Shown here: positions 37,799 to 60,120 of the stretch, in pieces
Numbering within the stretch: the first letter of the stretch is position 1
Layout of the letters: each line of letters begins with the position of its first letter
NCBI GenBank assembly: GCA_034717495.1
Contig: JAYELL010000025.1
Coordinates: 25,900-89,899 of the forward strand
Length of the DNA: 64,000 bases
Direction: 5' to 3'
DNA from: Chloroflexota bacterium
Lineage (GTDB): Bacteria > Chloroflexota > Anaerolineae > JAAEKA01
Program-made: the position numbers and the translations under genes
The notes under the pieces: model-generated
Told to the model about the DNA's origin: nothing
Seen by the model: only the letters and a program-made list of their open reading frames with translations
Database searches by the model: none

Positions 37799-37859
37799 TG
37801 TCGCGAATGGATTATCCACGCACACTGTGCAAAAAAAAGAAGAAATGGGAGATTTCTCC

Positions 37860-39062: not shown

Positions 39063-39105
39063 TGTTTGAGGGGATAACGTCTGAGGTGAAAGTGGAGAGT
39101 TCGAT

Positions 39106-40815: not shown

Positions 40816-40816
40816 C

Positions 40817-42526
40817 TTGAGTCATCAATACGGCGATCCAACCCTGGGCGATGGCGTTGGGCCACACTCGCCGGTCACTCTCTTTCGGCCACTGCCACTG
40901 CTCATTTCGGGGGGCTTGATCATTAGCGCTTTGATAGGTGTTTGGGCAGCCTACGACCGGGAACAAGCCTGGATGCGGTTCTCGCTCATCTCCATCGGTG
41001 TGGCACTGATGCTCGGCATTGCCTGGATGGGTTGGCGGGGACGAATGGATATACTGGGCATCTTTGGCCTGCTCTGTGCACTGCTTGGGGCAGCAATCGG
41101 TGCCTATTTCCTTCTGACCTTCGACTGGGCGGGCAATCAGGGAAAATTTGCGCCGATCCAAGCGGCAGGCCTCTGGCTTCAGGTCCATCGCCCCGCAATC
41201 CCGGTTCCCGAGGATATCAACGCCAATGTGGCTGGTAGCAGTCTGGCGATTCTTCTTCCACTGGGGGCTGTGGGCCTTTTCTGGGGATGGAGTCGCGACA
41301 AGCGTACCGTGGCGATCATCGCTGCCCTGTCGTTGCTCTTCGGGTTTCTGATTCTATTCCTGACGCAGTCCCGAGCAGCCTGGCTCGGACTGGCAGCCGG
41401 CCTGGCTGTGGCCCTCTACCTGGCAGTGCGACCAGGCCTGGAAAACTTCCCGCGCCGGCGTCTGCTGTTGGACCTGGTTGCTTTGGCAGGGGGGCTTCTT
41501 GTCCTTGTCCTCTTCTGGCTGGTGGCATCGAGCCCCACTCTTGCCGAATCGTTGGGCTCGATCGGCGTTGGTGTCAGCCTCACCAATCGCGCCGAGCTCT
41601 GGCGCGACGGGATGAACCTGGTAGCAGATTACCCCTTCACGGGCAGCGGCCTGGGCAGCACCATGATGGTCTACTCCACCTATGGACGGTTGTTGCATGT
41701 CGGATTTATCACCCATATGCACAATCTGTTCTTGCAGATCACCATCGAGCAGGGAATACCCGGGCTTCTTTTTTTTCTGCTGTTGCTTGTCCTGGCCTGG
41801 TGGAGTCTGCTAAGCGCCTACCGGTCGGGTGAAAACCGCTGCTTCTGCGTACCGGTGGCAGCATCCTTGGTCGCCCTGGTGGTGCAAGGCCTTGTCGACG
41901 TTGGTATTTATGCCAGCTACGCGCTTCCGGTTCTTTTCTTGCCCATCGGGTTTGCACTGGCCCTGGGGCAGCCACCCAGGGTACTCCGGCGAAGCAAGAA
42001 TGTCACCCTGGCACTGACGAGTGTATCGATCATCGTCGTGGCAATGTGTGTAGTGTTGATTGTACCTTCCAGTCAGGCTGCATTGCAAGCCAATCTGGGC
42101 GCCGTTGCCCAAACACAGCGGGAACTCTCCGCTTACAGCTGGCCCGAGTGGCCCATTCAGGATGCCCTCAGGCGCTCACCTGATATTGACCTGTCAGCTG
42201 CAATTGCCCGATACAAAGCAGCACTTGATCGTGATCCAAAGAATGCAACCGGCAACCGGCGACTGGGGCAGATTGAGCTTTCAAGAGGCAGGTATGAAGC
42301 GGCCCGATGGTACCTGGAAGCAGCGTATGCGACATCACCTCGTCAATCGGTGACCCGGCATCTGCTGGGCGAGGTATATGCCATCGATGGCGATCTGGAC
42401 CTGGCAACGTCCTTTCTTCGCAGCGTCGACATCGGCCATGGCCAGTTTCAGACCAGGGTATGGTGGTACGAAACTGTCGGCGAGACTGAAGGAGCTCAGC
42501 GGTTACGGGAAGCTGGCGGGTTTTGA
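40817..42526 (+). CDS. WaaL/O-antigen-ligase-family (Wzy_C) membrane protein with C-terminal TPR domain
   Basis: ~11 TM with LTQSRAAWLGLAAGLAVALYL Wzy_C block; C-terminal soluble TPR-like repeats. Confidence 0.7.
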   Translation: MSHQYGDPTLGDGVGPHSPVTLFRPLPLLISGGLIISALIGVWAAYDREQAWMRFSLISIGVALMLGIAWMGWRGRMDILGIFGLLCALLGAAIGAYFLLTFDWAGNQGKFAPIQAAGLWLQVHRPAIPVPEDINANVAGSSLAILLPLGAVGLFWGWSRDKRTVAIIAALSLLFGFLILFLTQSRAAWLGLAAGLAVALYLAVRPGLENFPRRRLLLDLVALAGGLLVLVLFWLVASSPTLAESLGSIGVGVSLTNRAELWRDGMNLVADYPFTGSGLGSTMMVYSTYGRLLHVGFITHMHNLFLQITIEQGIPGLLFFLLLLVLAWWSLLSAYRSGENRCFCVPVAASLVALVVQGLVDVGIYASYALPVLFLPIGFALALGQPPRVLRRSKNVTLALTSVSIIVVAMCVVLIVPSSQAALQANLGAVAQTQRELSAYSWPEWPIQDALRRSPDIDLSAAIARYKAALDRDPKNATGNRRLGQIELSRGRYEAARWYLEAAYATSPRQSVTRHLLGEVYAIDGDLDLATSFLRSVDIGHGQFQTRVWWYETVGETEGAQRLREAGGF

Positions 42527-42626
42527 CATCGGCATGGCCCTGGAATTTGATCATTTTGGCATTGGAGACTATCATGAGGGTTCGTGATGTATCTAGCATC
42601 TTGTGATGGCGAAAAAACTACTGGCT

Positions 42627-42656
42627 TTCGCAAGCGACCTGGTGGGTTGCTAACAT
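42627..42656 (+). promoter_or_regulatory. candidate promoter TTCGCA-N18-TAACAT abutting sulfotransferase ATG (leaderless start?)
   Basis: -10 hexamer ends 1 nt before ATG 42657; no SD. Confidence 0.3.
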
Positions 42657-43307
42657 ATGAAAAAACTATTCAGAAACCTTAGAAAATCCAAGCCTTCCTT
42701 GCCTGTGATCGTCGTTTCCGGTTTGCCTCGATCTGGAACGTCGATGATGATGAAAATGTTGGAAGCAGGTGGCCTGACGGTGGTAACCGACCAGATTCGT
42801 ACCGCGGACGAGGATAATCCAAAGGGATACTATGAGTTCGAACGGGTAAAACAGCTTGATAAGGGTGATACATCATGGGTATCCGACGCGCAGGGAAAAG
42901 TGGTCAAAGTAATCTCGGCCTTGTTGGAACACCTGCCACCTGACTATGACTACAACGTAATCTTCCTGCAGCGCAGTATCGAGGAAGTTTTGGCATCCCA
43001 GAAGAGAATGCTGGAACGTCGCGGGGAACCAACCGATCGGGTAAGTGATGAGGAGATGGCCCGCTTGTTTGCCAAGCACACTCAGAAAGTGGATCTGTGG
43101 TTAAACAGTCAGCCGAATATCTCAGTTCTCTATGTAGATTACAACGAGGTGGTGAGTAACCCCCATCAATCCGTAGGTCAGGCGAATCGATTCCTGGGCG
43201 GGCATTTGGATGAGCAAGCGATGATCTCAGCTGTCGATCCTCAACTCTATCGAAATCGGGCAAACCTGAACCAAATCTCAACTCGAGAAGACTCATTGTC
43301 AAAATGA
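42657..43307 (+). CDS. sulfotransferase-family protein (Sulfotransfer_3-like)
   Basis: 5'-PSB-like VVSGLPRSGTSMM near N-terminus, later RSIEEV.. 3'-PB-like block; soluble 216 aa; stop overlaps next start (ATGA). Confidence 0.6.
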   Translation: MKKLFRNLRKSKPSLPVIVVSGLPRSGTSMMMKMLEAGGLTVVTDQIRTADEDNPKGYYEFERVKQLDKGDTSWVSDAQGKVVKVISALLEHLPPDYDYNVIFLQRSIEEVLASQKRMLERRGEPTDRVSDEEMARLFAKHTQKVDLWLNSQPNISVLYVDYNEVVSNPHQSVGQANRFLGGHLDEQAMISAVDPQLYRNRANLNQISTREDSLSK

Positions 43308-43696
43308 ACCAACAGCTTCTGTCGTCATTGTGGCTGATCCTGGTGTCCACGATAGCTGGGGTAGCCGGTCAGGTTTCGCTCAAGCTGGGCATGAGCCAGC
43401 CGGGCGCTGAGGAGACGGTCTCAGAGGGTGTGTTGTCTCTGATAGCTTTGATTCTGCGCACTCCCCTGGTGTGGCTCGGACTGATGTTTTACGGGATAGG
43501 AGCGCTTGCCTGGATCGCCGTCTTGTCTCGTCTGGATCTTAGCGTGGCATACCCCTTTCTTGCCTTAAACTTTGTGTTGATTACTATCATATCCCGCCTG
43601 TTCCTTGGCGAGACTGTGCCCCTCCTTCGATGGGCAGGGATCGGTGTAATCGTAGTTGGTATTCTTCTGGTGGCGCGCAGCACTACGGCGTCATAA
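43304..43696 (+). CDS. 4-TM SMR/EamA-like flippase subunit (ArnE/ArnF/GtrA-like)
   Basis: 130 aa, 4 TM, EamA-like signature (LALNFVLITIISRLFLGE). Confidence 0.6.
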   Translation: MNQQLLSSLWLILVSTIAGVAGQVSLKLGMSQPGAEETVSEGVLSLIALILRTPLVWLGLMFYGIGALAWIAVLSRLDLSVAYPFLALNFVLITIISRLFLGETVPLLRWAGIGVIVVGILLVARSTTAS

Positions 43697-45233
43697 AAAC
43701 AAAGTGCACGAATCGCTTAGAAAACGCCACAACCGCTCCAAAGCTGGTACTTTGGTTTCCCTTTGTCTGCTGCTGGCAATTGCCGTGCCCTGGCTGGCTG
43801 GCACTGCCAAGGTATCGGCTGACCAACCAGTGATCTGGTCCAAACCGGTCAACTTATCCCAATCGGACGAGAGCTCGGTTCACCCGGCCATTGTCGCCGA
43901 CAGCATGGGGAATATCCACCTCTTTTGGAGTGAAGAGGTGGGTGGGGAACCGATGCTGCAGGACGAAATGGCCCGGCCTGGTAATACGATCCTCTATACT
44001 CGCTGGGACGGCCAATCATGGATCGAACCAAGGGATGTTCTGTACGTGCGGGGTGAATACCTTGGTGACTATGTTTCGGTCGCAATCGATGACAACAACC
44101 GGCTCCATGCAGTGTGGACGGGACTGGATAACATTTACTACAGTTCGGCGCCGGCGGCTGTAGCTGAGACAGCCCAGTCGTGGAGCAAACCGGTGGTGGT
44201 TGGAACCGGCAGCGCCCGCTCCGCCTTCGAGTCTGCTGTTGCTGTTGATTCACAAGGTGTTATTCATGTTGCCTATGGCGCCCGACGCGATGTGCCGGGA
44301 GTCAACTACGTGCAATCGAGCAACGGCGGCGAGACCTGGTCGGCGCCAGTGACATTGTCACTTCCCCTGGATCGTTTGGAGAGTGGCTATTCGCAGGTGC
44401 GCTTGGTGGTAGACAGTGCAGACCGAATCCATGCTACCTGGACAACCTTCCAGAGACAAGGCTTTGGCCAAGGTGTCTATCATAGTCGCAGCACAGATGG
44501 TGGTCTTACATGGAATACGCCCTACCGGCTCGCTTATCGAGAGGATGACGATATTTTCGTGGAGTGGCCCTATCTCACCGAGTTTGCCGACCAGGAACTG
44601 CGTGTGATCTTCACCGATGGTGATGGCAAGGGCCGGTTGCAGCGCATATCGACCGACGGGGGCGAAACCTGGGGTGAACCAACGGTCATCCTGACCGAAT
44701 TGGAAGGCATTAACGGCTATATCATTTCTCTGCTCGATGCCGCCGAGCAACCCCACTTGATCGCAAACATGCGTACCCGGTCTGACGGCACCGTCGGCCT
44801 GTTTTATGCCCCCGGCGCCGGGGGAGGCTGGCAACCGACTGTTCCGATCGCAACCGATCTACCCTACGGCCCCTCATCACACTATCCTGCAGCCGCCGTT
44901 CGCCTGGGCAATGAGATACACATCGTGTGGACCCAGTTGCGACGGGGTGAGATATGGCATATGAAGGGGGAGGTCTCCGGGGTTGAACCTCTTCCGGTGA
45001 TGGAGAGGCTTCCGCCACAAGAAGTTGTGCAGCCATCGCCTACGATTAGCATCTCTACACCAACCCCAGAACCGCTGGAAACGGTGGCACCATCCCGGGA
45101 GCGGGGCGTTGCCGGGCCGACGCCCGCGCCCGTTGCACCGCCATCGCCGCTCGGCGCAGTGCTACCCGGTATAACACTTTCGCTGCTCCTGGTGCTTGGT
45201 GTGATCGTTTGGAAGGGTGTTCGCGCCAGATAG
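43656..45233 (+). CDS. BNR/Asp-box repeat (sialidase-fold) exported protein with C-terminal TM anchor
   Basis: Asp-box repeats SNGGETWSAP, STDGGLTWNTP, STDGGETWGEP; signal peptide; C-terminal hydrophobic anchor; true start likely downstream of 43696 (non-ATG). Confidence 0.65.
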   Translation: MVFFWWRAALRRHKNKVHESLRKRHNRSKAGTLVSLCLLLAIAVPWLAGTAKVSADQPVIWSKPVNLSQSDESSVHPAIVADSMGNIHLFWSEEVGGEPMLQDEMARPGNTILYTRWDGQSWIEPRDVLYVRGEYLGDYVSVAIDDNNRLHAVWTGLDNIYYSSAPAAVAETAQSWSKPVVVGTGSARSAFESAVAVDSQGVIHVAYGARRDVPGVNYVQSSNGGETWSAPVTLSLPLDRLESGYSQVRLVVDSADRIHATWTTFQRQGFGQGVYHSRSTDGGLTWNTPYRLAYREDDDIFVEWPYLTEFADQELRVIFTDGDGKGRLQRISTDGGETWGEPTVILTELEGINGYIISLLDAAEQPHLIANMRTRSDGTVGLFYAPGAGGGWQPTVPIATDLPYGPSSHYPAAAVRLGNEIHIVWTQLRRGEIWHMKGEVSGVEPLPVMERLPPQEVVQPSPTISISTPTPEPLETVAPSRERGVAGPTPAPVAPPSPLGAVLPGITLSLLLVLGVIVWKGVRAR

Positions 45234-45251: not shown

Positions 45252-46031
45252 ATGCATCATTTCACTGAGCTGTTTGGGTATCGTGACCTGCTCTGGCTAT
45301 GGACCTTGCGAGAAGTCAGGGTACGGTATAAACAATCTTTCCTGGGCGTTGCCTGGGCGATCATTCAACCGCTGGCCCTGACTGTCGTCTTTACCGTCGT
45401 TTTTTCTTTTCTGCTTAAGATCGATACCGGGGATGTGCCCTATCCGGTTTTTGCCTATACTGGACTGGTCCCCTGGACGTTCTTTGCAACCTCGCTGGCT
45501 TTCGGGATTCCCAGCCTTGTCAACAATATGAATCTGGTCACAAAAATCTACTTTCCCCGGGAGATACTGCCCCTTGCCAGTATCGGAGCCGCCTTTGTAG
45601 ATTTTCTGATCGCCTGCGCGATTCTGGCCGGGTTGATGTTGATTTATCGGGTCTTTCCAGGAATCGAGGCCTTGTGGCTCGGCCCGCTGCTCTTGCTGCA
45701 GATCATTCTGAGTATCGGTGTGATTTTGCTGGGCGCTGCGCTCATTGTGTTCTTCCGCGATATTCGTTTCGTCGTACCCTTATTGACGCAGGTCTGGATG
45801 TATGCTACGCCAATCATCTACCCGGTGGATTTCGTACCTGAACAGTTGCGACCCTTCTATTTTCTGAATCCAATGGCCGGTATCATCGACGGATATCGAC
45901 GGGTGCTGATTTATGGTGAGGCGCCCAATATGCAAGCGCTGACATTGGCCACGATAGTGTCCGTGATACTGTTTGTGGTAGGATACCTGGTTTTCAAGCG
46001 AACAGAACCGGTATTTGCGGATATCATATGA
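45252..46031 (+). CDS. wzm: ABC-2 type polysaccharide exporter permease
   Basis: ABC-2 membrane protein (YKQSFLGVAWAIIQP...). Confidence 0.85.
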   Translation: MHHFTELFGYRDLLWLWTLREVRVRYKQSFLGVAWAIIQPLALTVVFTVVFSFLLKIDTGDVPYPVFAYTGLVPWTFFATSLAFGIPSLVNNMNLVTKIYFPREILPLASIGAAFVDFLIACAILAGLMLIYRVFPGIEALWLGPLLLLQIILSIGVILLGAALIVFFRDIRFVVPLLTQVWMYATPIIYPVDFVPEQLRPFYFLNPMAGIIDGYRRVLIYGEAPNMQALTLATIVSVILFVVGYLVFKRTEPVFADII

Positions 46032-47275
46032 CCGATCAACTTCCATTGGGGTCTGTAATTTGTGATAAGGTTTCCAAACGCTATCGACTGGGTGCGTTTG
46101 GATCATTGCGCGGCACGGTGTCATCCCTTTTCGAGCGGCGGAGTGAGGAAGAAGAGGCACAGCGTACTCTGTGGGCATTGCAGGATGTTAGCTTTCGGTT
46201 GCAGCCTGGCGAGTCACTGGGCTTGCTGGGTCCCAATGGTGCCGGAAAGACGACCACCCTGAAGCTCCTGTCGAAGATTACCAGGCCAACATCGGGCAAC
46301 ATTACACTGCTTGGGCGCTCCTCATCCTTAATCGAGTTGGGGGCGGGATTCCATCCGGAACTTACTGGCAAGGAGAATATCTTTCTGAATGGAGCGATTC
46401 TGGGATTGAGTCGCCACGAGATTCAACGGCGTCTTGATGAGATTATTGCATTCTCTGAATTGGAAAGGTTCATCGATACCCCTGTCAAACGTTACTCTTC
46501 AGGCATGTATGTCCGTCTTGGCTTTGCCGTGGCTGCCTACGTCGAGCCGAATGTGCTTCTGGTTGATGAAGTGTTGGCAGTGGGAGATATTAGCTTTCGG
46601 CAGCGCTGCATCAAACGAATGAAGGAGTTGCAGGAATCGGGCACGACAGTTATCTTTGTCTCTCACAACATGCATCTGGTTCGCAACATGTGTCAACGCT
46701 CGTTGCTCCTGGTTCATGGACAGATCCAGTCAGAGGGTCCCACAGATGATGTGATCGCAGACTATGAACGGCTAATCATGGGAACTGCCGAATTGGCGAA
46801 TGACAAGTCCCAGGACAAGGACCAGTCCCAGGTGTTGTCCGATGTCATTGTGCTGAATGTCGACGTAGCTCCCCTGACACCAAACGATAGGAACCTCATC
46901 GATTCGCATCAGTCTGGTGTAGTGACAATTCGTTACCGTACCCAGGCGCCCCGGGAAATCGGGCGTATCGATGTCCGCGTATTACGCGACGATGGCACAC
47001 TGTGTAGTTCACTTGATGCCAGGGCAGCCGCCAAAAACGATCCTCGATTCCGCCACCTGGATCGGGAAGGTTCGTTTGTCTTGACCTTTTCACCCATGCA
47101 GTTGACTTCAGGCACCTATTTCGTGCTCGTTCGTATTACCGACTCATCCGATGCCCTGGTTATCGCATCCGGACAATCCAAGTTATTTCAGGCCTACGCA
47201 GGCGACCTGCCTTCGCCGCCGGGGGTTTTTGTTCCCTCAGTTGCATGGGACGTCGGGAAAGAGAATCGAAGTTAG
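46028..47275 (+). CDS. wzt: polysaccharide exporter ATP-binding protein with C-terminal extension (Wzt)
   Basis: NBD (GPNGAGKTT, YSSGMYVRLGFA, LLVDEVLAVGD) plus ~170-aa beta-rich C-terminal extension. Confidence 0.8.
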   Translation: MTDQLPLGSVICDKVSKRYRLGAFGSLRGTVSSLFERRSEEEEAQRTLWALQDVSFRLQPGESLGLLGPNGAGKTTTLKLLSKITRPTSGNITLLGRSSSLIELGAGFHPELTGKENIFLNGAILGLSRHEIQRRLDEIIAFSELERFIDTPVKRYSSGMYVRLGFAVAAYVEPNVLLVDEVLAVGDISFRQRCIKRMKELQESGTTVIFVSHNMHLVRNMCQRSLLLVHGQIQSEGPTDDVIADYERLIMGTAELANDKSQDKDQSQVLSDVIVLNVDVAPLTPNDRNLIDSHQSGVVTIRYRTQAPREIGRIDVRVLRDDGTLCSSLDARAAAKNDPRFRHLDREGSFVLTFSPMQLTSGTYFVLVRITDSSDALVIASGQSKLFQAYAGDLPSPPGVFVPSVAWDVGKENRS

Positions 47276-47372: not shown

Positions 47373-49109
47373 ATGGATATTGGCGCAATAGGTTGGTGGC
47401 ATCACGATAACCACGGTGACTGGGCGATGCTGAATGCCCTGACGCACGCTATGAAGCCACATCGCATCGTGCCGATTGATACCGGCTTTGAGGTCAATGA
47501 GGACACGCTCTATCGTCTAAATCGGCTTGATTTTCTTATCCTTGGCGGTGGCACGTTGATGCGCGAGAGGCCTGTCGAACCCTTTGACCGATTCGATAGT
47601 TGGGGCGAATATCTTACAACTCCTATTGGCATTGCGGGGATGGGTGTCGAGACCGTGGCCCCTAACTATGCAGACGCGATGGGAGCATTGTTGGACAAAA
47701 GTGAGTTCTTCTACGTCCGGGATCAGACCAGCCTGGCGTTGCTGGATCATCCCAAAGCCCGTTATGCTCCCGATCTCACATTTTCTCAGCCGTTGCCAAT
47801 TGCCGGGGCCAGGTCCGTGGTCGAAGGACGATCACCTCTTTGCGGTGTCAATCTTCGTCGGCTTCCCGGGGATGTTTTGACGAACTGGATCGATGTTCTT
47901 CAACAATTGCCGGTGGAGTTTCGGGGCATTTCGCTCTCTTCCCATCCCGAGTTCTCTGAGGGCGGGTTGTTGCGACAACTGGATCCTCAGTATCCGGATG
48001 GCTTTGACCCGCGCTCTTATGCCGATCTTAACCTGATGATTGGCACCGCCTTTCATTCGGTGGTCTACGCCATTCAATCGGCGATCCCCGTGATCGCGAT
48101 CGCCTATGCGCCAAAGGTCCGACGGTTGATGACTGATATCGGTCTCGGCGACTTCGTGCTTGAGCCAACGGAGTGGGACCTCCTGCCCGGGCTGGTACAG
48201 ACGGCCATCGAGAGGCAAGAGGAAATGGCCGAGCGGTTGAGGGAGACCACGACTGAGTTGACTCGGGCCGCCAACGCCAACGCAACAGCGATCAAAGAAC
48301 ATATCGAGGCCGTCGCCCAACCACATGAACGGCTTGGTCCCAGGGTCAGCATCGCCGTTCTGGTAACGGGCAGTGATGAAGAAACCAGGCGAACGATCCA
48401 ATCCTGTTTGGACCAGACCCATGAGAATGTAGAAGTGGTCGTTGTAGCCAATCAAGCTGGTGAGCCAGAGCTCGGAACGGAACATTCTGACCAGATCCGT
48501 ATCATTCGAATGGAACGCGAGTCAGAGGCGGGCGATCTTCTGCAAGCCGGGTTGCTAGAAGCTGACGGTTGCTATGTGACCTGGATCCGCTCCGGGGATC
48601 GTTTCACGCGGGATGCTATTGACTGCATGGTCAGCTGGCTGGAAGCCGATAGCATGTGCGATATGGTCTATTCGGATTATTTCGTGACCGGTGGTCATGA
48701 TCGCATCTTGGATTGGCAAGTAGTACACCCTGCCTACAAACTCTTTCGGCGCAACGTGGTTGGACCCTGTTTCCTGCTGCGGACATCACTTATGTCGGAC
48801 CTTGGCATGCACCATGCTACCTCGCTCTTGCCCGACTATGACTACTGGTTGCGTGCCCAGAACGAGGGTGAGCTCGAACCCCGGCATACCAGGCTCTTTT
48901 ACCGTCACATTTCCAATGGCGCCATCGATGATCCGGTCGAGGAACAGCAGGTGCGACGGGAGTGGATTGCCGGTTTGCCGCTATCGCGTCAAGTAGTGTG
49001 GCGGGTCCGGGATAACAATTTTATCAACCAACAGGTGATTCCCTGGTCGATGGCAGCTGCTCGCAACGTGGCAGGAACACTCAAGCAAAGCCGCAGGGAC
49101 CAGGACTAA
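47373..49109 (+). CDS. fusion protein: polysaccharide pyruvyl transferase (CsaB/WcaK-like) + GT2-like domain
   Basis: N-terminal IGAIGWWHHDNHGDWAMLNAL...ILGGGTL (PS_pyruv_trans); C-terminal VSIAVLVTGSDEE...VEVVVV, DYDYW (GT2-like). Confidence 0.65.
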   Translation: MDIGAIGWWHHDNHGDWAMLNALTHAMKPHRIVPIDTGFEVNEDTLYRLNRLDFLILGGGTLMRERPVEPFDRFDSWGEYLTTPIGIAGMGVETVAPNYADAMGALLDKSEFFYVRDQTSLALLDHPKARYAPDLTFSQPLPIAGARSVVEGRSPLCGVNLRRLPGDVLTNWIDVLQQLPVEFRGISLSSHPEFSEGGLLRQLDPQYPDGFDPRSYADLNLMIGTAFHSVVYAIQSAIPVIAIAYAPKVRRLMTDIGLGDFVLEPTEWDLLPGLVQTAIERQEEMAERLRETTTELTRAANANATAIKEHIEAVAQPHERLGPRVSIAVLVTGSDEETRRTIQSCLDQTHENVEVVVVANQAGEPELGTEHSDQIRIIRMERESEAGDLLQAGLLEADGCYVTWIRSGDRFTRDAIDCMVSWLEADSMCDMVYSDYFVTGGHDRILDWQVVHPAYKLFRRNVVGPCFLLRTSLMSDLGMHHATSLLPDYDYWLRAQNEGELEPRHTRLFYRHISNGAIDDPVEEQQVRREWIAGLPLSRQVVWRVRDNNFINQQVIPWSMAAARNVAGTLKQSRRDQD

Positions 49110-49120
49110 GAAGATGAGTC

Positions 49121-50320
49121 ATGCTCACAGTTAGCGCCATCGTGGTGACCTTCAATCGAGCAGACTATCTTCCCGAGGCGCTTGACAGCATTTTCTCGCA
49201 GGAGATGCCGCCGCTGGAAGTCATTGTCGTCGACGACGGATCCGTTGACGATACGAAGGAAGTCGTTGGCAGCTATGGCGACCGGATTCTGTATGTATGG
49301 CAGGAGAACCAGGGTGTATCCGCTGCGCGGAATCGGGGTCTTTCTGTTGCTCAAGGCGACTTGATCGCCTGGCTTGACTCGGATGATGCCTGGCAGCCTG
49401 CGTTCCTGTCGACCCTTGTGCAGCGCATCGAGCGTGATCCAGGTGTCGATGGCGCCTACAGCGGGAGAGTTTATATCGACAGCGAAGGAAAGGCACTTTC
49501 CCAATCGGTGCGAGTGGAACCGGACGAAGCGTTATATGCCAGTTTGATTGAGGATAACTTCCTCACGACTTCCTCGCTTATCGTTAAACGAAGCTGTTAT
49601 GAATCGGCCGGTCCATTTGACCGTCAGTTCCGTATCGGTGAGGATTACGATATGTGGCTTCGTTTCGCCCGGCGACACAGGATTGTTGGCATGCCGGAAC
49701 CTCTGGTAAGATACAGGGTGCACAGTGGCAATACCGTGGCGGATGCCGACAAATATAAATACTACCGGCTTGCGTTGACCGGGAAGCAGTTTGGTGAACT
49801 GGGCAGTGACCGCGATCAATGGACCGAAGAAGCACGACTTGCCCACGGATTTTCCTTTCGATCCGTTGCCTTCAACTACTTCCAGGCAGGTCAGATGGAC
49901 GAAGGGTGGTACTACCTGCAGCAGGCGATATCGATATATCCGGATATTCTGGAGCGCCTTGACACCTACTACGAAGTGCTCTGCGGAGATCAGCCCTTGG
50001 GTCTGCGAGGCCAGGCGCAATTGTTGGATATCGATGCCAATAGTGCAGATTTGCTAAGACGGTTGGATGCCCTGTTTTACGAAGGTGGCAATACTCTGCA
50101 GCCGCGACGGCCCGCCGCTTACGGCAACGCTTACCTCGCCATGGCCATGCTGAATGATCAGGCTGGCAATTGGTCGCAGGCCCGGCGTTGCATCGCCCGA
50201 GCGATTCGGCACTATCCCGCTTTGCTTGGCCAGCAAGGTGTGTTGCGGCGTTTCGTCAAGTTGTCGGTGGGCCAGTCAGGAGCAGAACTGGGAAGATCGT
50301 TTTTGGATCGGTCGCCCTGA
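49121..50320 (+). CDS. GT2 glycosyltransferase with C-terminal helical/TPR-like domain
   Basis: VSAIVVTFNRADYL, VIVVDDGSVDDT, DSDD motifs. Confidence 0.8.
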   Translation: MLTVSAIVVTFNRADYLPEALDSIFSQEMPPLEVIVVDDGSVDDTKEVVGSYGDRILYVWQENQGVSAARNRGLSVAQGDLIAWLDSDDAWQPAFLSTLVQRIERDPGVDGAYSGRVYIDSEGKALSQSVRVEPDEALYASLIEDNFLTTSSLIVKRSCYESAGPFDRQFRIGEDYDMWLRFARRHRIVGMPEPLVRYRVHSGNTVADADKYKYYRLALTGKQFGELGSDRDQWTEEARLAHGFSFRSVAFNYFQAGQMDEGWYYLQQAISIYPDILERLDTYYEVLCGDQPLGLRGQAQLLDIDANSADLLRRLDALFYEGGNTLQPRRPAAYGNAYLAMAMLNDQAGNWSQARRCIARAIRHYPALLGQQGVLRRFVKLSVGQSGAELGRSFLDRSP

Positions 50321-50359
50321 CGATTGAGTTCGTTGCTGTTGTCGATTGAGAAGAAATCA

Positions 50360-51613
50360 ATGCGTTTCCTTTTCTTATCCAATTTATATCCGCCGGCCCA
50401 TTTGGGAGGCTGGGAGTTGATGTGTCGCGACATTGCGGGCGCGTTCATTGACCGCGGTCACCAGGTGGAGGTTTTGACGAGTCGCTTCCAAAAGGAAATG
50501 ATTGAGCAGGATGATCCCAATATCCATCGGGAACTGTATCTGGAAAGCGATGTCCACCATTACAATCCAGTTGACTATTTCCTGCAATCGCAACGGAACG
50601 ACGAACGAAACTTCGAGACGCTAACCCGGAATATTCAGGACTTCCAGCCCGATGCTGTGGTGGTGTGGGGCATGTGGCTGCTGAATCCGCAGTTGGCTGC
50701 GCTGGCGGAAAAGCTATGTCCCGGCCGGGTTGCCTATTATTTCTGCGGCTATTGGCCCATCGAAGAGGACCCGCACAGCCAGTACTGGCGCGCCTTCGTT
50801 GATAACAAGCGGTTGCCGGGATGGCTCAGTCAACGAATCAGCCGGCAGGCGTTGGCACGGCAGGAGAACCGCTCGAAAGATCAACTCGAATTCCGACATG
50901 TGACATGCGTGAGCCAGGCGGTACTGGACATACTGAGAGAAGGTGGTATCCCCTTACCGAATGCAACTGTAACCTACAATGGCATCGATCTGGATGAGTT
51001 CTATGCGCCCCTGGACCAAAAGGGATTCCACACCCCATTGCGCTTGATGTATGCGGGCAGCCTGGGTGCCAACAAGGGTGTGGATACAGCGGTACAGGCG
51101 GTTGCGCTGCTTTCCAAGAAGTTCAGCCCGGGAGATGTTCACCTGACTCTTGTTGGGAAAGGGCATCCCGCCTTCGAGGATCAGTTGCACCAGATTATCG
51201 GGGATGCCGGGATTGAGCAGTTTGTGACGATGACCGGCTGGATCGATCGCGTTGAGATGCCGCAAGTTTTGCACCAGCACGACGTACTGCTGTTTCCTTC
51301 CAGATGGCCTGAACCATTGGCGCGCATGATGATGGAGGGCATGGCGGCCGGCTTAACCCTGGTGAGCACCACCACCGGTGGCACTGCGGAGTTCCTTGAA
51401 CATCGTCAAAACAGCCTGACATTTGAAGCTGGCGATGCAGTGGATCTGGCTCATCAGATTGACTGCCTGCTTTCCGAGCCCGGCCTGGCAAGGCGATTGG
51501 CGAAGGCTGGCCAGGAATTAGCCCTTGAGCAGTTTGACGAGAATCGCATGTACGACGAAATCGAAGAATTCGCTGTGCAGGCCGCGCAGCAGACCTCTTC
51601 GGTCTCGCCATAG
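50360..51613 (+). CDS. GT4 (GT-B) glycosyltransferase
   Basis: MRFLFLSNLYPPAHLGGWE N-terminus; C-terminal EPLARMMMEGMAAGLTLVSTTTGG (E-x7-E region). Confidence 0.8.
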   Translation: MRFLFLSNLYPPAHLGGWELMCRDIAGAFIDRGHQVEVLTSRFQKEMIEQDDPNIHRELYLESDVHHYNPVDYFLQSQRNDERNFETLTRNIQDFQPDAVVVWGMWLLNPQLAALAEKLCPGRVAYYFCGYWPIEEDPHSQYWRAFVDNKRLPGWLSQRISRQALARQENRSKDQLEFRHVTCVSQAVLDILREGGIPLPNATVTYNGIDLDEFYAPLDQKGFHTPLRLMYAGSLGANKGVDTAVQAVALLSKKFSPGDVHLTLVGKGHPAFEDQLHQIIGDAGIEQFVTMTGWIDRVEMPQVLHQHDVLLFPSRWPEPLARMMMEGMAAGLTLVSTTTGGTAEFLEHRQNSLTFEAGDAVDLAHQIDCLLSEPGLARRLAKAGQELALEQFDENRMYDEIEEFAVQAAQQTSSVSP

Positions 51614-51641
51614 AGACCTGGTCAGGAGGCCACCGGAAGTC

Positions 51642-52895
51642 GTGCGTATCCTTTTCCTGAGCAATTACTATCCACCCCTGGAAGTGGGCGGATATGAGCA
51701 GTTGTGCCGGGATGTCGCTGAACGCCTTGCCGGGCGTGGCCATACAATTGCGGTTTTGACGTCGACTTACGGCCTGGGAAAAGAGCCGGTCGGACAGGAT
51801 GTGGATTACGATGTGCATCGGTTGCTGAGGTTACAGCCCGATTTCGACCGCCGGCTTGGTGCCACGCTGCAGTTCTTTTTGACGCGTCAACCGGATGAAC
51901 AATACGACCTGGCATGCTTCAGGAAGGTTATTGCCGAATTCGATCCCGTTGTGATCTCGATCTGGAACATGCAAAGGTTGCCCCGGTCCCTGGCGCTGGA
52001 GGCGGAGGCACTCCCGGATACAGGCGTGGCCTATTGGGTGGCCAGTTCTACCCCGGCCGAACCCGACGAGTTCTGGCGGTATTGGGACCTGGTTCCCCCC
52101 AACCCGTGGAAGGCCCGCTTCAAAGGGTTGTTTAGCGATCGGGCCTTGCGCACTATGCAAGCCGAAGGCCATCCCCTGCAGCCCGAGATGAAACACGTGG
52201 GCGTTGTCAGTAATTTCATGCGCGAGAGAGGAATCGACGACGGAACATTGCCTTCCTGGACGAAGGTCATCTATAACGGCGTGGAGATCGATTCCTTTTT
52301 TCAACCAGTGCAGCCGTTAGGCGAGGGGCCAATGTGTTTCCTGCAGGCCGGCCGTGTCAGTGATGACAAAGGTGTGCATACAGCCATTGAGGCGGTCGGA
52401 TTGGCGGTTCAGAAATCGGGCCTCGGAAACGTCCGCCTTGTTATTGCAGGATCTGGTCCGGCGGATTACCGGCAGCGACTGGACGAGTTGGTAAAGCGGT
52501 ACCAGATAGAGGAACAAGTCGTTTTCACTGGCTGGTTGCCGCGGGAACAGATGCCGGCGCTTATGGCTGAAAGCCATGTGCTGCTGTTGCCGACTACTCA
52601 TCAGGAGCCCTTTGCCCGGGTAGTCCTGGAAGCAATGGCCAGCGGGCTGGCTGTTGTCGCCACGCCTACTGGCGGAACCGAAGAGATCGTCCAGCATGGC
52701 AAAACGGGCCTGCTGTTTCCGGTCGGTGACAGCAAAAAACTCACTGACCAAATTGGAGGCCTGGTTGAAAACGACGATTTCAGAATTCAACTGGCTGAAG
52801 CAGGCCAACATCTGGTCGCTCAGCGGTATAGCCTGGAGCATATGGTCGACGAGATCGAGAATCTGCTGAATCTGGCGACCAGTGACGGATCATAA
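51642..52895 (+). CDS. GT4 (GT-B) glycosyltransferase
   Basis: GTG start after AGGAGG; VRILFLSNYYPPLEVGGYE; EPFARVVLEAMASGLAVVATPTGG. Confidence 0.8.
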   Translation: MRILFLSNYYPPLEVGGYEQLCRDVAERLAGRGHTIAVLTSTYGLGKEPVGQDVDYDVHRLLRLQPDFDRRLGATLQFFLTRQPDEQYDLACFRKVIAEFDPVVISIWNMQRLPRSLALEAEALPDTGVAYWVASSTPAEPDEFWRYWDLVPPNPWKARFKGLFSDRALRTMQAEGHPLQPEMKHVGVVSNFMRERGIDDGTLPSWTKVIYNGVEIDSFFQPVQPLGEGPMCFLQAGRVSDDKGVHTAIEAVGLAVQKSGLGNVRLVIAGSGPADYRQRLDELVKRYQIEEQVVFTGWLPREQMPALMAESHVLLLPTTHQEPFARVVLEAMASGLAVVATPTGGTEEIVQHGKTGLLFPVGDSKKLTDQIGGLVENDDFRIQLAEAGQHLVAQRYSLEHMVDEIENLLNLATSDGS

Positions 52896-52976
52896 TGTCA
52901 CCATGTCAATATGTCAAAATGATATCTTGGCATCATGACATTGTAGCATCATGACATTGTGACATTCTTGCAACTC
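52893..52976. repeat. array of direct repeats (gcatcatgacattgt x2) and 6 TGTCA/TGACA half-sites in intergenic region
   Basis: cataatgtcaccatgtcaatatgtcaaaatga...gcatcatgacattgtagcatcatgacattgtgacattc read directly. Confidence 0.6.
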
Positions 52977-54197
52977 ATGCGCATCTTATTCCTGGCAACG
53001 TGGTTCCCGTTCCCACCTGATAATGGCTCAAAAATCAGGGACTTCAACCTGTTAAGAGAATTAGGAAGGACTCACGATGTGACATTGGTGGCCTTCGCTT
53101 TTGACACCGCCACTCCCGATCGAGCAGAGCCATTGAATGAGTTTTGCACACAGATTGAGGTGGTCCCGATCGATCCGTTCGATCGGGGAGAGCAGGCTGA
53201 AATTTTCAGGTTTTTGTCCCCCGCGCCCATTGTCGATAAACCGGTGCCCGAGATGGAAGCGCTGGTGGAAAAAATCCTCCGGGACAACACCTTTGATGCT
53301 GTAATTGCGTCTACAACAGTGATGGCAACCTATGCCCTCCAGGCCAGGAATGCCTGCAAGATTCTACAGGAGCACAATTTTCACACCATCTGGACATTGG
53401 ACCGGTACCAAAATGAAACAACTTTGCCTGGCAAAATGCAGGCCTGGGTGAGTCTGCAAAAACGGCGCCGCTATGACGACAAGCTGTTCTCCCAGTTTGA
53501 TCTCTGTGCCATGGTATCGGAGAGGGATCGGGATGCCACGCTCAGGATGTTGCCTCGCTTCGACGGTCCTGTGGCCGTGGTTCCCAATGGTGTAGATTGT
53601 CAGCACAATCATCCCGGGCTGGCCGGGGTGGTACCCGATAGCCTGATTTACAACGGAGCTCTCACCTATTACACCAATCATGATGCCATGGCTTTCTTTC
53701 TCTCGGAAGTCTTCCCCCTGGTGCGCCAACAGGTGCCACAGGCACAGGTGACCATCACGGGATCGACCAAGGGTGTTGATGTTGACTCCCTGCCATTGGG
53801 CGGCGGCGTCCATCTCAGCGGGTATGTCGACGATATTCGGCCATTGGTAGCGGCAGCCAGGGTCTGTATTGTGCCCTTGCGGCTAGGTGGTGGATCCAGG
53901 CTGAAGGTGTTGGAAGCGATGGCACTTGGAACGCCAGTGGTAGCCACAAAAAAGGGTGCAGAAGGCCTGGACGTCGTGGACGGCAAGCATATCCTGGTGG
54001 CCGACAGTCCGTTGGAATTCGCGTCGGCCACCATCAGGTTGCTGCAAGAGGACGCGTTGAGAGATGAATTGTCCGCCAACGCACGCCAGCTGGTCGAGCA
54101 GCAGTATGACTGGTCCAGGATAGGGCAGCAATTCGTATCGTTGGTTGAACAGACTACTCGCGAGTGCCAGGACCCTGAGCGGGACAAGTTAGTATGA
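52977..54197 (+). CDS. GT4 (GT-B) glycosyltransferase
   Basis: MRILFLATWFPFPPDNGSKIR; ...GGGSRLKVLEAMALGTPVVATKKG. Confidence 0.8.
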   Translation: MRILFLATWFPFPPDNGSKIRDFNLLRELGRTHDVTLVAFAFDTATPDRAEPLNEFCTQIEVVPIDPFDRGEQAEIFRFLSPAPIVDKPVPEMEALVEKILRDNTFDAVIASTTVMATYALQARNACKILQEHNFHTIWTLDRYQNETTLPGKMQAWVSLQKRRRYDDKLFSQFDLCAMVSERDRDATLRMLPRFDGPVAVVPNGVDCQHNHPGLAGVVPDSLIYNGALTYYTNHDAMAFFLSEVFPLVRQQVPQAQVTITGSTKGVDVDSLPLGGGVHLSGYVDDIRPLVAAARVCIVPLRLGGGSRLKVLEAMALGTPVVATKKGAEGLDVVDGKHILVADSPLEFASATIRLLQEDALRDELSANARQLVEQQYDWSRIGQQFVSLVEQTTRECQDPERDKLV

Positions 54198-55627
54198 ATC
54201 TATCCAACCGTGACGTGCGGCAATTTACAGCCAATCGAAACTTGCTGATCATCATGGTAATCGTCGGCGTATTGGCGTCCGCCTGGTTCCTGGGTCAGCG
54301 AGCGTCAATACTATGGCTTGGGCTGTTGGTCGTTGGAATCGGCGCGACCCTTGTGTTGAAGCAGCCATTGATCGGCCTGCTGGCCCTGGTGGTCATAGCT
54401 CTTGTGGGACCCATAAAAATCAACACAGGGACGACCGTACAGATAAACCCAACTACTTTGGTTATCCCTGCTCTCCTGGTTTTGTGGGTCCTGGTAATGA
54501 TCCTGCAAAAGGATGTCCGATTGGTCCCTTCGGCGGTTAACAAGCCGCTGATAGCTTTCGTAATTGCCGGTCTGATCTCATTATTGGTGGGAAGTGTTCT
54601 GTGGAATCCGCTGGTACCCCGCTCGGGTAACTTTCTATTGGTGCAGATGGCCCAGTGGGCGATCTTCGCTTTCTCGGCCGGAGCGTTTCTGTTGACTGCG
54701 AATCTGGTGAAGGACGAGTTGTGGCTCCAGCGTCTGACCTTTGCTTTTCTGGTAGTGAGCGGCGGCCTGGCCATTCTCAGTCTCATTCCGGTCACACGAA
54801 GTCTGGTCTATGACATTTCGACGATTGCATTCATTCGGGCCCCTTTCTGGATGTTGATCGCCGCTTTGGCCGGTGGACAACTTCTTTTCAATGGCAAGCT
54901 GTCCGCTGGATGGCGCATTTTTCTGATAGTCTCACTGCTTGCGGTGGTAAATTATGCGTTCTTTCTGTCGCGCGACTCGGCATCGACCTGGGGCGGCGTG
55001 GGAACCGCCTTTGCAGTGCTGATTTGGTTTCGTTTTCCGCGTGTGCGCTGGCTCCTGGTGCTCTTTGTACTTGCCCTGGCAGCCACCGGCGCTCTTTTCC
55101 CTGCCCTATGGGATTTTGCCGGTGGGGATACAGAGTGGAAAACCACAGGCGGCTCGCGGATTGCATTGATCGAGCGGGTGATGCAAGTGTCAATGTTCAA
55201 TCCAGTTACAGGTTTGGGACCTGCCGCGTATCGCAAATATGCCGCAATGGAGCCGCTGAAATACGGTAACGCCTTCTGGGTGGCGCCTCAGGTGAACTCT
55301 CACAACAACTTTGTCGATCTCTTTTCCCATGTTGGCATCGTTGGCCTGGTACTTTTTGCCTGGTTTGTTTGGGAGATGAGCAAAATCGGTGGTAAGCTGC
55401 GCAGCTGTTACCTGGAGGGTTTTTCGGCAGGCTACGTAAATGGCACGCTGGCGGCCGGTGTTGGGGCACTGGTTTTGATGATGTTCGCGGACTGGATTCT
55501 GCCGTTCGTCTACAATATAGGGTTTCATGGTTTTCAGGCGAGTGTCCTTGTCTGGCTGTTCCTGGGAGGGCTGGTGGCTCTTGAGCAAATGATGCCGGCG
55601 CCTGAAGCTTGCCCGCCGGGGGCATAG
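54194..55627 (+). CDS. Wzy_C-family membrane protein (O-antigen polymerase/ligase-like)
   Basis: ~12 TM, central large loop; start overlaps preceding stop. Confidence 0.6.
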   Translation: MNLSNRDVRQFTANRNLLIIMVIVGVLASAWFLGQRASILWLGLLVVGIGATLVLKQPLIGLLALVVIALVGPIKINTGTTVQINPTTLVIPALLVLWVLVMILQKDVRLVPSAVNKPLIAFVIAGLISLLVGSVLWNPLVPRSGNFLLVQMAQWAIFAFSAGAFLLTANLVKDELWLQRLTFAFLVVSGGLAILSLIPVTRSLVYDISTIAFIRAPFWMLIAALAGGQLLFNGKLSAGWRIFLIVSLLAVVNYAFFLSRDSASTWGGVGTAFAVLIWFRFPRVRWLLVLFVLALAATGALFPALWDFAGGDTEWKTTGGSRIALIERVMQVSMFNPVTGLGPAAYRKYAAMEPLKYGNAFWVAPQVNSHNNFVDLFSHVGIVGLVLFAWFVWEMSKIGGKLRSCYLEGFSAGYVNGTLAAGVGALVLMMFADWILPFVYNIGFHGFQASVLVWLFLGGLVALEQMMPAPEACPPGA

Positions 55628-55676
55628 GTTTGGTTTGCGATTTCCACTGTCTGCATGACACGTCCGTTGGTCGTGT

Positions 55677-56648
55677 TTGCCGCAAGGATTCTCCCTGGTG
55701 ACCTCAAAAAAAGATCTTTCTGTCATCATTGTGAACTGGAATACCTGTGATTTTCTGGCTCAGTGTCTGGAATCAGTACCTGGCGGCCAGCTGTCAGAAA
55801 CCGGGTTGGGCCAGCATGTTGAGGTTGGTACCCGTAACCTCGATATTGAGGTCATCGTCGTTGACAATGCTTCCAGTGATGGCAGCGCGGAGATGGTGCG
55901 CCGGAGGTTTCCACAGGTTAAGCTGATTGAAAACAGCCGGAACATCGGATTCGCCATGGCCAACAACCAGGCTATCGCTTATAGCAGAGGGCGTTATGTT
56001 CTCCTGCTGAACAGCGATACGGTGGTGCATTCGGGCGCGTTGCAGCGAATGGTCGCTTTCATGGAAGATCATTCCAGGGCTGGGGCAGTCGGTCCTCGAT
56101 TGCTGAACGAAGATGGAACGCTTCAACCCTCGGTACACCCGATGATGACGCCGGCGCGGGAGTTCTGGCGTTTGATCTTTCTGGAGAAACTCTGGCCCCT
56201 TGCACGCTATCAACAGGAGCAGTGGGATACAGAAACGCCTCGTCTCGTCGATGTCATAAAGGGCGCCTGCTTGATGGTGCGTCGCCGTGCCCTGGAGCAA
56301 ACCGGCCTGTTGGATGACCGGTACTTTATGTATACTGAGGAAGTTGACCTTTGTTATCGACTGGCACGCGATGGCTGGAATCTTTGTTACGTGCCGGCAG
56401 CAGTGGTAACCCATTTCGGTGAGGCCAGTAGCCGTCAGATGGCCGAGGATATGTATATTCAACTCTATCGCAGCAAACTTCAGTTTTTCCGCAAATTCGG
56501 TGGAGCTGGCCGAGCGCGCCGGTTCAAGGTCCTCGTGAGCCTTGCCTATGCACCGCGAGCCATGGTGGCGACAACCAGTGGCCTGATAAGCGAGCCATGG
56601 CGCACCCGTGGCAAAACATACCGTCGATTGCTTCGAGAACTTGATTGA
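55677..56648 (+). CDS. GT2 glycosyltransferase (rhamnosyltransferase-like)
   Basis: SVIIVNWNT, VIVVDNASSDGS, NSDTVV motifs. Confidence 0.8.
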   Translation: MPQGFSLVTSKKDLSVIIVNWNTCDFLAQCLESVPGGQLSETGLGQHVEVGTRNLDIEVIVVDNASSDGSAEMVRRRFPQVKLIENSRNIGFAMANNQAIAYSRGRYVLLLNSDTVVHSGALQRMVAFMEDHSRAGAVGPRLLNEDGTLQPSVHPMMTPAREFWRLIFLEKLWPLARYQQEQWDTETPRLVDVIKGACLMVRRRALEQTGLLDDRYFMYTEEVDLCYRLARDGWNLCYVPAAVVTHFGEASSRQMAEDMYIQLYRSKLQFFRKFGGAGRARRFKVLVSLAYAPRAMVATTSGLISEPWRTRGKTYRRLLRELD

Positions 56649-60063: not shown

Positions 60064-60120
60064 TTGTTATCCCAGAATGGACAAGAGGTAATTTTCAAAA
60101 GCGAATAGGGTTGACCGGTG

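Follow-up and report, generated by a model that had tools for sequence, protein, structure and literature searches.

A gene at positions 47373 to 49109 (+ strand) of a 64,000-nt stretch of Chloroflexota DNA (contig JAYELL010000025.1 of assembly GCA_034717495.1; the whole stretch is referred to as the window) specifies a polysaccharide pyruvyltransferase joined in one polypeptide to a glycosyltransferase family 2 (GT2) domain, which has kept its fold and lost its catalytic motifs. It appears moderately probable that the protein is a cytoplasmic pyruvate-capping enzyme with a pseudo-GT2 module, acting in a surface-glycan pathway of Chloroflexota (Anaerolineae in the broad sense) that depends on a transporter of the ATP-binding cassette (ABC) type, and that the exporter reads the cap. 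The capping role is suggested by the fixed place of the gene beside an exporter whose ATPase, Wzt, carries a putative carbohydrate-binding module (CBM), and by pyruvyltransferases fused to such Wzt proteins in other lineages.

The fusion gene and its product

The gene is contained in one unbroken + strand open reading frame (ORF) ending at 49109, for which two starts, 47310 (GTG) and 47373 (ATG), are candidates. The ATG was chosen because the resulting protein of 578 aa plus stop agrees with the N-termini of homologues (M-x-IG-x-IGWW) and with an identical NCBI protein (P0001), which is annotated as 'polysaccharide pyruvyl transferase family protein' from a Chloroflexota bacterium metagenome-assembled genome (MAG) and is encoded on a contig of 94 kb. 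Two Pfam families are matched above their cut-offs, PS_pyruv_trans (PF04230) in the N-terminal part with 43.6 bits versus 25.3 (residues 13-139), and Glycos_transf_2 (PF00535) in the C-terminal half with 34.3 bits versus 23.3 (residues 331-427). In the homologues P0016 and P0063, coverage of PF04230 is nearly complete, from profile positions 1-3 to 279 of 280. An earlier note on this DNA, made from the sequence alone, had described such a fusion and named two ways in which it could fail, an N-terminal domain outside PS_pyruv_trans or an artificial joining of two genes by a frameshift or sequencing error. The fusion stands: the Pfam score settles the first point, and a mis-joined gene was rejected, since the same full-length architecture is kept in about 70 clusters from independent assemblies and at 16 loci of reference genomes.

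An AlphaFold2 (AF2) model of the protein, built on 29 sequences (pLDDT 86.3, pTM 0.85), consists of an alpha/beta part (residues 1-280), a helix of 33 residues (282-314), a second alpha/beta part (323-516) and a helical tail (517-578). The domain boundaries requested in the earlier note could thus be given as residues 1-315 for the pyruvyltransferase module (47373..48317, +; PF04230 and conserved motifs), 323-516 for the GT2-fold domain (48339..48920, +) and 517-578 for the tail (48921..49106, +). The long helix (48216..48314, +) was considered as a coiled-coil ruler or spacer and rejected as such. None of 36 columns in this region is conserved at 95% or more, and pyruvyltransferases that stand alone (310-340 aa) or are fused to Wzt match the profile to about residues 312-320, where they end. 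Because these proteins end with the same helix, it was assigned to the pyruvyltransferase module as its C-terminal helix. The tail is rich in basic and aromatic residues, and its modelled helices (521-577) have lower pLDDT. Residues E524, R525, R528, W543 and D547 are conserved in the homologue alignment, and a hydrophobic-moment scan of the tail gave no clear amphipathic membrane helix. The tail possibly contacts the membrane or a partner protein.

Protein searches yielded 79 relatives, about 70 of them full-length with 40-48% identity (JGI, ENA, NCBI and Logan assemblies), and all traceable full-length homologues belong to uncultured Chloroflexota. A scan with one genome per species detected 16 loci, all of them from MAGs of Chloroflexota, which bear the labels Anaerolineae, Anaerolineales, Caldilineales/Caldilineaceae, Thermoflexales or 'Chloroflexia'. 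The counts of motifs and conserved columns given below refer to an alignment of 70 homologues, and the close relatives used for comparison were obtained from an exhaustive hidden Markov model (HMM) search of 1.84 billion representatives, which gave 515 matches at E<=1e-30.

Two variants of the architecture were recognised. A sister group of 640-700 aa (P0073, encoded at L021:5189-7156, P0116, P0120, P0123, P0130 and P0135) also combines a pyruvyltransferase with a degenerate GT2-like domain, ends with a different region of about 170 aa, and has 'GYYGYGNAGDE' at the N-terminus in place of 'GWWxxDNxGD'. Its gene at L021 is likewise found downstream of wzm and a CBM-bearing wzt. In the core family itself, P0003 (L022:8001-10304), P0010 and P0016 carry a third, C-terminal methyltransferase domain at residues of about 607-746. 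Judged from these domains, a double terminal modification, pyruvyl plus methyl, is suggested for some organisms.

The GT2-like domain has kept its fold and lost its catalytic motifs

A Foldseek search with the C-terminal domain of the model matched GT2 structures of the GT-A fold, 6p61 (E=1.3e-13, TM 0.82), SpsA, K4CP and heparosan synthase. Mean identity in this half is 42%, and 16 of 194 columns are conserved at 95% or more; these are not the catalytic ones. Conserved residues include Q348, W404, G408, D414, R459, Y489 and W492, and R528 in the tail. Catalytic positions were located by HMMER alignments of the family profile to the solved GT2s 6p61, SpsA and K4CP. In the window protein, four motifs are replaced: 'PxYN' in beta1 by 'VTGSD', 'xDDxS' in beta2 by 'VVANQ', 'SDDN/DxD' by 'RSGD' (406-409), and 'E-D' by 'P-D488'.

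The same holds for the family. The PxYN position reads G-S-G-S (G in 53, S in 41, G in 34 and S in 38 of the 70 sequences). The 'DDGS/DGS' of 6p61, SpsA and K4CP falls on a hypervariable beta2 loop, which is deleted in 14/70 and has Asp in just 15/70 at each of two positions. The DxD motif (DAD, DD or DSD) aligns to x-[A/G/S]-G, so that the metal-binding Asp corresponds to Gly408 in 69 of the 70. With SpsA D191, K4CP D605 and WrtF D167 as reference general bases, the base was placed at position 488. The first Asp of 'DYDMYLK' in K4CP (chain index 547) aligns there, and equating this index with Asp605 assumes that the crystallised construct begins near residue 58. At position 488, Ala is found in 37 sequences, Asp in 11, Thr in 6, Gly in 5 and Val in 4, the Asp thus being missing in 59/70. 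Asp488 is retained in the window protein itself, but the Glu before it is missing there, as are DxD, DD and PxYN.

Relatives outside the family present a different picture, since every one examined retains all four motifs. These are stand-alone GT2s of about 300 aa (P0203, P0231, P0239, P0248), the GT2 encoded next to a Wzt::pyruvyltransferase fusion (L001:12280-13266), modules of giant multi-glycosyltransferase proteins (P0158 and P0176, the base being Gln-Asp in the latter), and the GT2-TPR protein encoded downstream in the window (49121-50320). In the core family, represented by the window protein, P0002 and P0011, PxYN and DxD are lost, xDDxS is lost with a remnant Asp in a minority, and the base is lost apart from the 11 sequences mentioned. 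Proteins of the sister group (P0073, P0116, P0120) have lost all four and in addition the 'YDYWLR' region. Homology between the window domain and the intact GT2s is nevertheless clear: 28% identity was found to the GT2 at L001:12280-13266 (E=2e-22), and GEYLTW, DxVYxDY, GPCFLYRR and YDYWLR are shared. Because of these common motifs, the degenerate domain is clearly a descendant of an SpsA-like GT2 subfamily characterised by 'TWTSDDN...GPCFLYRR...EDYxYWLR' (L001:12280-13266, P0203, P0231), from which it differs by the absence of PxYN, DD, DxD and, across the family, the general base.

Absence of DxD was dropped as a sole argument for inactivity. WrtF, a GT2 fucosyltransferase of O-polysaccharide synthesis, is active without metal and has 'GADD' for DxD, and its WbdO-type relatives have 'N(A/S)GD' in this place (PMC12595478). 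WrtF is among the sequence matches, and 'N(A/S)GD' resembles the [A/G/S]-G-D of the fusion family. Since there are active GT2s without a canonical DxD, the loss of this motif proves nothing about the state of the domain. The assignment as pseudoenzyme is based instead on two points: four motifs are lost together, the general base among them, and close relatives have kept theirs. All known inverting GT-A families conserve an Asp or Glu as general base, and WrtF D167A yields no product (PMC12595478). Residues 323-516 therefore very probably form a non-catalytic GT-A module that is still under selection. As the loss covers residues for nucleotide-sugar binding, metal binding and the general base, the domain is predicted to transfer no sugar.

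The coupling of sugar addition to pyruvylation, as proposed in the earlier note, is accordingly unlikely, given that the nearest outside relatives keep all the hallmarks missing here. A truly bifunctional enzyme would have to add the sugar by a non-canonical, metal-independent mechanism before pyruvylating it. The precedents of WrtF and the WbdO-type proteins, with their resemblance to the x-[A/G/S]-G-D of the family, the Asp488 retained in the window protein and the purifying selection on the domain could be cited for it, and intact GT2-pyruvyltransferase fusions and synthases (P0156, P0157, P0167, P0142; see below) make such a coupling biologically sensible. However, Ala, Thr, Gly or Val occupies the position of the base in the 59 sequences lacking Asp, where even WrtF has an acidic residue, the PxYN of beta1 and the DD of beta2 are gone together with the whole beta2 loop in some members, and the sister group has degenerated further. 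Moreover, an intact GT2 is always encoded immediately downstream and could supply the transferase activity. A bifunctional enzyme is thus regarded as improbable. The pseudo-GT2 module most plausibly holds the glycan terminus, a use of the ancestral acceptor binding, or serves in docking to the GT2-TPR polymerase or the exporter.

The pyruvyltransferase module

Conservation is much higher in the pyruvyltransferase half, with 55 of 280 columns conserved at 95% or more and a mean pairwise identity of 55%, compared with the values for the GT2-like half given above. Motifs listed for WbbZ and other glycan pyruvyltransferases, namely NxGD, Rxxx(S/T) and His (PMC10629545), are all present: N13-x-G15-D16 (47409-47420, +) is conserved in 69/70, and R116-x-x-x-S120 (47718-47732, +) and H228 (48054-48056, +) in 70/70. 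Invariant as well is K248 (48114-48116, +), the candidate Lys of the phosphoenolpyruvate (PEP) site. In CsaB of Paenibacillus alvei, R148, H308 and K328 are required for PEP binding (PMC10435577), and the spacing of 20 residues between H228 and K248 equals that of H308 and K328. Residues were equated with the published ones by pattern and by this spacing, not by structural superposition. A search of PDB sequences with the pyruvyltransferase profile gave no pyruvyltransferase match even at E<=10. The reference fold for such enzymes is GT-B-like with two Rossmann domains, as in Pvg1p (5AX7) and WbbZ (6X1L). From its motifs, the N-terminal module (1-315) is predicted to be an active PEP-dependent ketal-pyruvyltransferase.

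The designation 'CsaB-like' in the earlier note could not be upheld. The CsaB equivalog TIGR03609 scores 39.1 bits, with 213.1 needed, and orthology to CsaB was rejected on these grounds; in the scan of equivalog models the protein also fell outside WcaK and the other equivalog families. CsaB of Bacillus anthracis and P. alvei shares with it the Pfam family, the Arg, His and Lys of the PEP site with identical His-Lys spacing, and an aromatic pair after the N-terminal Gly (WW in the fusion protein, Y14/F16 in CsaB). It differs in R306, which is an invariant Ala in the fusion family, in the SLH context, and in having no additional GT2-like module. The idea that the product is a ligand for SLH domains fares no better, since no SLH domain is encoded among the about 40 genes of the window and the context is a Wzm/Wzt-CBM exporter, not a CsaB/SLH locus.

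A function of the CsaB type, in which a pyruvate ketal on a secondary cell-wall polymer (SCWP) anchors SLH-domain surface proteins, is for these reasons very unlikely. Genes of the TagA/TagO type for N-acetylmannosamine (ManNAc) were not seen either, and it is Wzm/Wzt-CBM, a BNR propeller and Wzy_C ligases that are conserved as partners. It is true that Chloroflexota, without lipopolysaccharide (LPS), have multilayered and poorly understood envelopes thought to hold polysaccharide and protein (PMC13319060). In Bacillus and Paenibacillus, SLH domains have the pyruvylated ManNAc of the SCWP as their ligand, and binding of SLH domains would be compatible with a terminal pyruvate cap.

The exporter and its putative cap-binding module

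Immediately upstream of the fusion gene, the window contains the genes for Wzm (45252..46031, +), the ABC-2 permease of a glycan exporter (PF01061), and Wzt (46028..47275, +), its ATPase (PF00005). Wzm orthologues with 63-72% identity occupy the same position in related Chloroflexota loci. For comparison of gene order, 16 related loci with enough upstream flank were available, consisting of 14 core loci, the sister-group locus L021 and the methyltransferase-variant locus L022. In all 16, wzm-wzt precedes the fusion gene, either directly or at a distance of up to 2.7 kb. In several loci, the space between wzt and the fusion gene is taken up by one or two extra genes without Pfam matches, which are absent from the window; L003:8710-9973, for instance, has an insert with products of 360 aa and 74 aa, and gaps of 1.3-2.7 kb are present in L007, L009, L011, L013, L015 and L016.

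Wzt consists of 415 aa, with about 170 residues following the ATPase domain (ATPase, 1-244; C-terminal domain, 245-415, corresponding to 46760-47272). For 12 of 13 orthologous C-terminal domains, no Pfam family matches better than Wzt_C, though each match is below threshold. Searches of the PDB with the single sequence and with a profile of 13 sequences gave no match, and the domain alone as query for homologues gave one. An AF2 model from an alignment of 31 sequences (pLDDT 84.5) was more informative. Its top Foldseek matches are CBMs of Wzt proteins (E of about 1e-5, TM 0.6-0.72): 8dky and 6o14, the Aquifex aeolicus Wzt carbohydrate-binding domain bound to 3-O-methyl-mannose; 5hno and 5hnp, the Kdo-cap binder of the O12 system; and 2r5o, Wzt-C of Escherichia coli O9a. 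Caps bound by the matched modules are methyl-mannose, Kdo and methylphosphate. The C-terminal domain of Wzt therefore models as a carbohydrate-binding module of the cap-binding type. In systems with a CBM-bearing Wzt, a terminal cap is required for export (PMC10629545).

Pyruvyltransferase fusions in other lineages

The connection between pyruvyltransferase and Wzt is direct in other organisms. At L001:10001-12157 (GCA_040961635.1), a protein of 718 aa (P0079) unites an ABC ATPase, Wzt_C and a pyruvyltransferase, the latter located C-terminally to the Wzt-CBM, and the next gene encodes an intact GT2 of the subfamily from which the dead domain of the window is derived. The same order of Wzt, CBM and pyruvyltransferase was found in P0147 (702 aa) and the fragment P0146 from a different, low-GC-looking lineage, so that triple fusions exist in at least two lineages. 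Fusions in reverse order, an intact GT2 followed by a pyruvyltransferase, are represented by P0156, P0157 and P0167 (about 550-900 aa). P0142, with 3,064 aa, begins with a pyruvyltransferase and an intact GT2, and also contains TPR-like regions, further GT2 modules, a GT4 and a region resembling radical-SAM/SPASM proteins.

Because of the reverse fusions, P0142 and the arrangement at L001, this GT2 subfamily and this clade of pyruvyltransferases are regarded as a recurrent pair. The architecture is consequently not unusual in itself, as had been assumed in the earlier note; the unusual feature is the degeneracy of the GT2 partner. In the reverse fusions and P0142 a sugar is probably added and then pyruvylated, and the Chloroflexota version would be a degenerate form of this arrangement. 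In a partial search of the literature, no account was found of a fusion between a pyruvyltransferase and a GT2 or pseudo-GT2.

Capping or internal decoration

If the enzyme acts on the chain end, its product could be the cap read by Wzt. Most characterised pyruvyltransferases modify repeat units, not termini (PMC6801904; PMC10629545), and it is conceivable that the fusion protein decorates internal or side-chain sugars in the manner of WcaK, GumL or WcfO, the cap being made by another enzyme such as a methyltransferase or sulfotransferase, with the GT2-like domain non-catalytic here as well. Known terminator systems mostly use methyl caps, genes for both types of enzyme are present in the window cluster, and L022 and L001 also have methyltransferase genes. 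However, no orthologues of the window methyltransferase and sulfotransferase were detected in the related loci, which makes them less likely cappers, whereas the pyruvyltransferase gene is found together with the conserved CBM-bearing Wzt in every case. Internal decoration is also hard to reconcile with pyruvyltransferases fused to Wzt-CBM in other lineages, and overall we consider it rather unlikely. Capping by the fusion protein is further supported by the family variants with an added methyltransferase domain, methyltransferases being the commonest chain-terminator chemistry (PMC10629545).

Several observations weigh against capping. Members of the family are known from their sequences, not from chemistry. 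The terminal pyruvate added by WbbZ in Klebsiella can be a mere epitope (PMC10629545), and other potential capping enzymes, the methyltransferase and the sulfotransferase, are at hand in the window. A coiled-coil ruler was not found in the fusion protein, whose sole long helix belongs to the pyruvyltransferase module. Finally, invariant Arg residues of the Chloroflexota CBM are not common to the CBMs of the Wzt::pyruvyltransferase fusions.

In the favoured scheme of pyruvate capping, the glycan would be started on undecaprenyl phosphate by the phosphoglycosyltransferase of the cluster and lengthened within the cytoplasm by the GT2-TPR and GT4 enzymes encoded nearby. With PEP as donor, the pyruvyltransferase module would next attach a pyruvate ketal to the terminal sugar at the non-reducing end, while the pseudo-GT2 module would hold the glycan terminus or dock the enzyme to the GT2-TPR polymerase or the exporter. 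Recognition of the cap by the Wzt CBM would license export through Wzm/Wzt, and a Wzy_C-type ligase would transfer the exported glycan to its final acceptor, which may be a protein or a wall polymer. Since Chloroflexota have no LPS genes (PMC13319060), lipid A-core is not a candidate. A more far-reaching version is offered only tentatively, and we are inclined to doubt it: the pyruvate ketal would be a true export-licensing cap for which Wzt has a dedicated CBM, the pathway, widely conserved in Anaerolineae, would build an unexplained outer layer of the Chloroflexota envelope, and the dead GT2 would be a terminus reader or docking module presenting the chain end in place of a coiled-coil ruler.

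Comparison with known systems

One close parallel is WbbZ of Klebsiella pneumoniae O1 (PDB 6X1L), a PS_pyruv_trans protein in which the NxGD, Rxxx(S/T) and His motifs are likewise present. This cytoplasmic enzyme places pyruvate on the non-reducing terminus of an O-antigen exported by an ABC transporter, and halts polymerisation in vitro (PMC10629545). Unlike the fusion protein, WbbZ is a single domain of about 330 aa without a pseudo-GT2 module and is encoded away from the transporter, whereas the fusion gene always accompanies wzm-wzt. Its exporter has no cap-recognition coupling and export is independent of pyruvate; the Chloroflexota Wzt, in contrast, has a putative CBM.

In this last respect the system resembles those of WbdD (E. 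coli O9a, kinase plus methyltransferase) and WbbB (Klebsiella O12/Raoultella, Kdo transferase plus polymerase), in which a Wzt of the cap-binding fold is accompanied by a cap-adding enzyme, the fusion protein being the candidate here. The variants with an added methyltransferase domain extend this likeness. Differences are the cap chemistry, here a proposed pyruvate ketal, the lack of a coiled-coil ruler, the presence of a pseudo-GT2 and an LPS-free host, which implies another final acceptor. WsaE of the S-layer glycan pathway of Geobacillus stearothermophilus, a methyltransferase fused to rhamnosyltransferase domains, likewise unites a cap-forming domain and GT2 domains in one chain. It belongs to an ABC-transporter pathway of an organism that has no outer membrane, and the cluster includes a Wzy_C-type transferase. 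It has active glycosyltransferase domains and a methyl cap, in contrast to the degenerate GT2 and the proposed pyruvate in the fusion protein.

Pyruvate as terminator chemistry has been proposed for candidates in Burkholderia vietnamiensis and Pseudomonas protegens and is unvalidated (PMC10629545). The family described here offers a clean, phylogenetically independent test case for pyruvate capping: its cluster is compact, its Wzt has a putative CBM, and fusions of Wzt to a pyruvyltransferase occur naturally. Envelopes of the hosts are multilayered, LPS-free and chemically uncharacterised (PMC13319060), and a cluster conserved across Anaerolineales, Caldilineales and Thermoflexales is a concrete candidate for one envelope layer. 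If the interpretation is correct, a conserved dead GT-A domain joined to a modifying enzyme would represent a glycosyltransferase reused as a non-catalytic module, which bears on the recognition of chain ends by assembly complexes and on the engineering of glycan binders.

The glycan cluster around the fusion gene

According to Pfam, the fusion gene is part of a glycan cluster extending from about 37 to 63 kb of the window. Upstream, the order is hexapeptide acyltransferase, GT2, radical SAM protein, Wzy_C-TPR, sulfotransferase, BNR propeller, Wzm and Wzt; downstream, the gene is followed by GT2-TPR, three GT4, Wzy_C, GT2, PMT_2 (GT-C), methyltransferase, GT2, GT4 and Bac_transf. Tblastn searches of all fetched loci defined a conserved core of BNR, Wzm, Wzt, a gap of 0 to 2.7 kb, the fusion gene, GT2-TPR, the GT4s, Wzy_C and GT2.

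Directly after the fusion gene, a canonical GT2 with C-terminal TPR is encoded (49121..50320, +; PF00535 with 118 bits), whose motifs VDDGS, DSDD and GEDYDMWLR are intact; orthologues with 45-55% identity are found downstream in Chloroflexota loci. Three GT4 glycosyltransferases follow (50324..54197, +), at 50324-51613, 51525-52895 (start uncertain) and 52959-54197, with orthologues in related loci. The conserved core ends with an O-antigen-ligase-like Wzy_C membrane protein (54194-55627) and a GT2 (55677-56648), both assigned by Pfam and synteny (54194..56648, +). Overlaps of the mechanically called ORFs were noted at 51525-51613, between the first two GT4 genes, and at 58627-58855, between a membrane GT2 and a methyltransferase; the true starts are probably located further downstream.

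Both flanks of the core are variable. The proximal part (37010..43307, +), from the hexapeptide acyltransferase to the sulfotransferase, is mostly unconserved in related loci. The distal part (56655..62843, +) is poorly conserved and comprises a PMT_2 GT-C protein (56655-58109), the methyltransferase (58106-58855), the membrane GT2 (58627-60063), a GT4 (60129-61337) and the initiating phosphoglycosyltransferase Bac_transf (61353-62843).

The first gene of the core (43656..45233, +; PF13088) specifies a BNR/sialidase-like beta-propeller with hydrophobic N- and C-terminal segments. By tblastn (40-46% identity), such a gene was detected at 13 related loci, directly upstream of wzm in each (for example L003:5067-6581 and L004:6456-7916), and L022 has a BNR_2 gene in the same place. 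The propeller may be a glycan receptor, a processing enzyme or an anchor. Sialic-acid-like lectin-binding properties have been reported for pyruvylated galactose (PMC10629545), and a partner with sialidase fold is intriguing because of this.

Further observations concern genes at some distance from the fusion gene. The radical SAM protein (39106-40815, +; 569 aa), next to Wzy_C-TPR, has no Pfam match in its first about 300 residues and no orthologue in related loci. Three Wzy_C membrane proteins, one of them fused to TPR, are encoded in the window (15292-16791, -; 40817-42526, +; 54194-55627, +), although the host is expected to have no LPS. An ORF of 554 aa at 13752-15416 (-) has no Pfam match, and the protein of 852 aa specified at 16863-19421 (+) contains DUF4377, two META domains and an NlpE N-terminal domain. 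The positions 1991-2902 (+) and 19472-20248 (+) are listed with a protein of three LysM domains and a PA14-domain protein. All of these latter proteins, from 13752-15416 to the LysM and PA14 proteins, are probably associated with the envelope and unrelated to the fusion gene.

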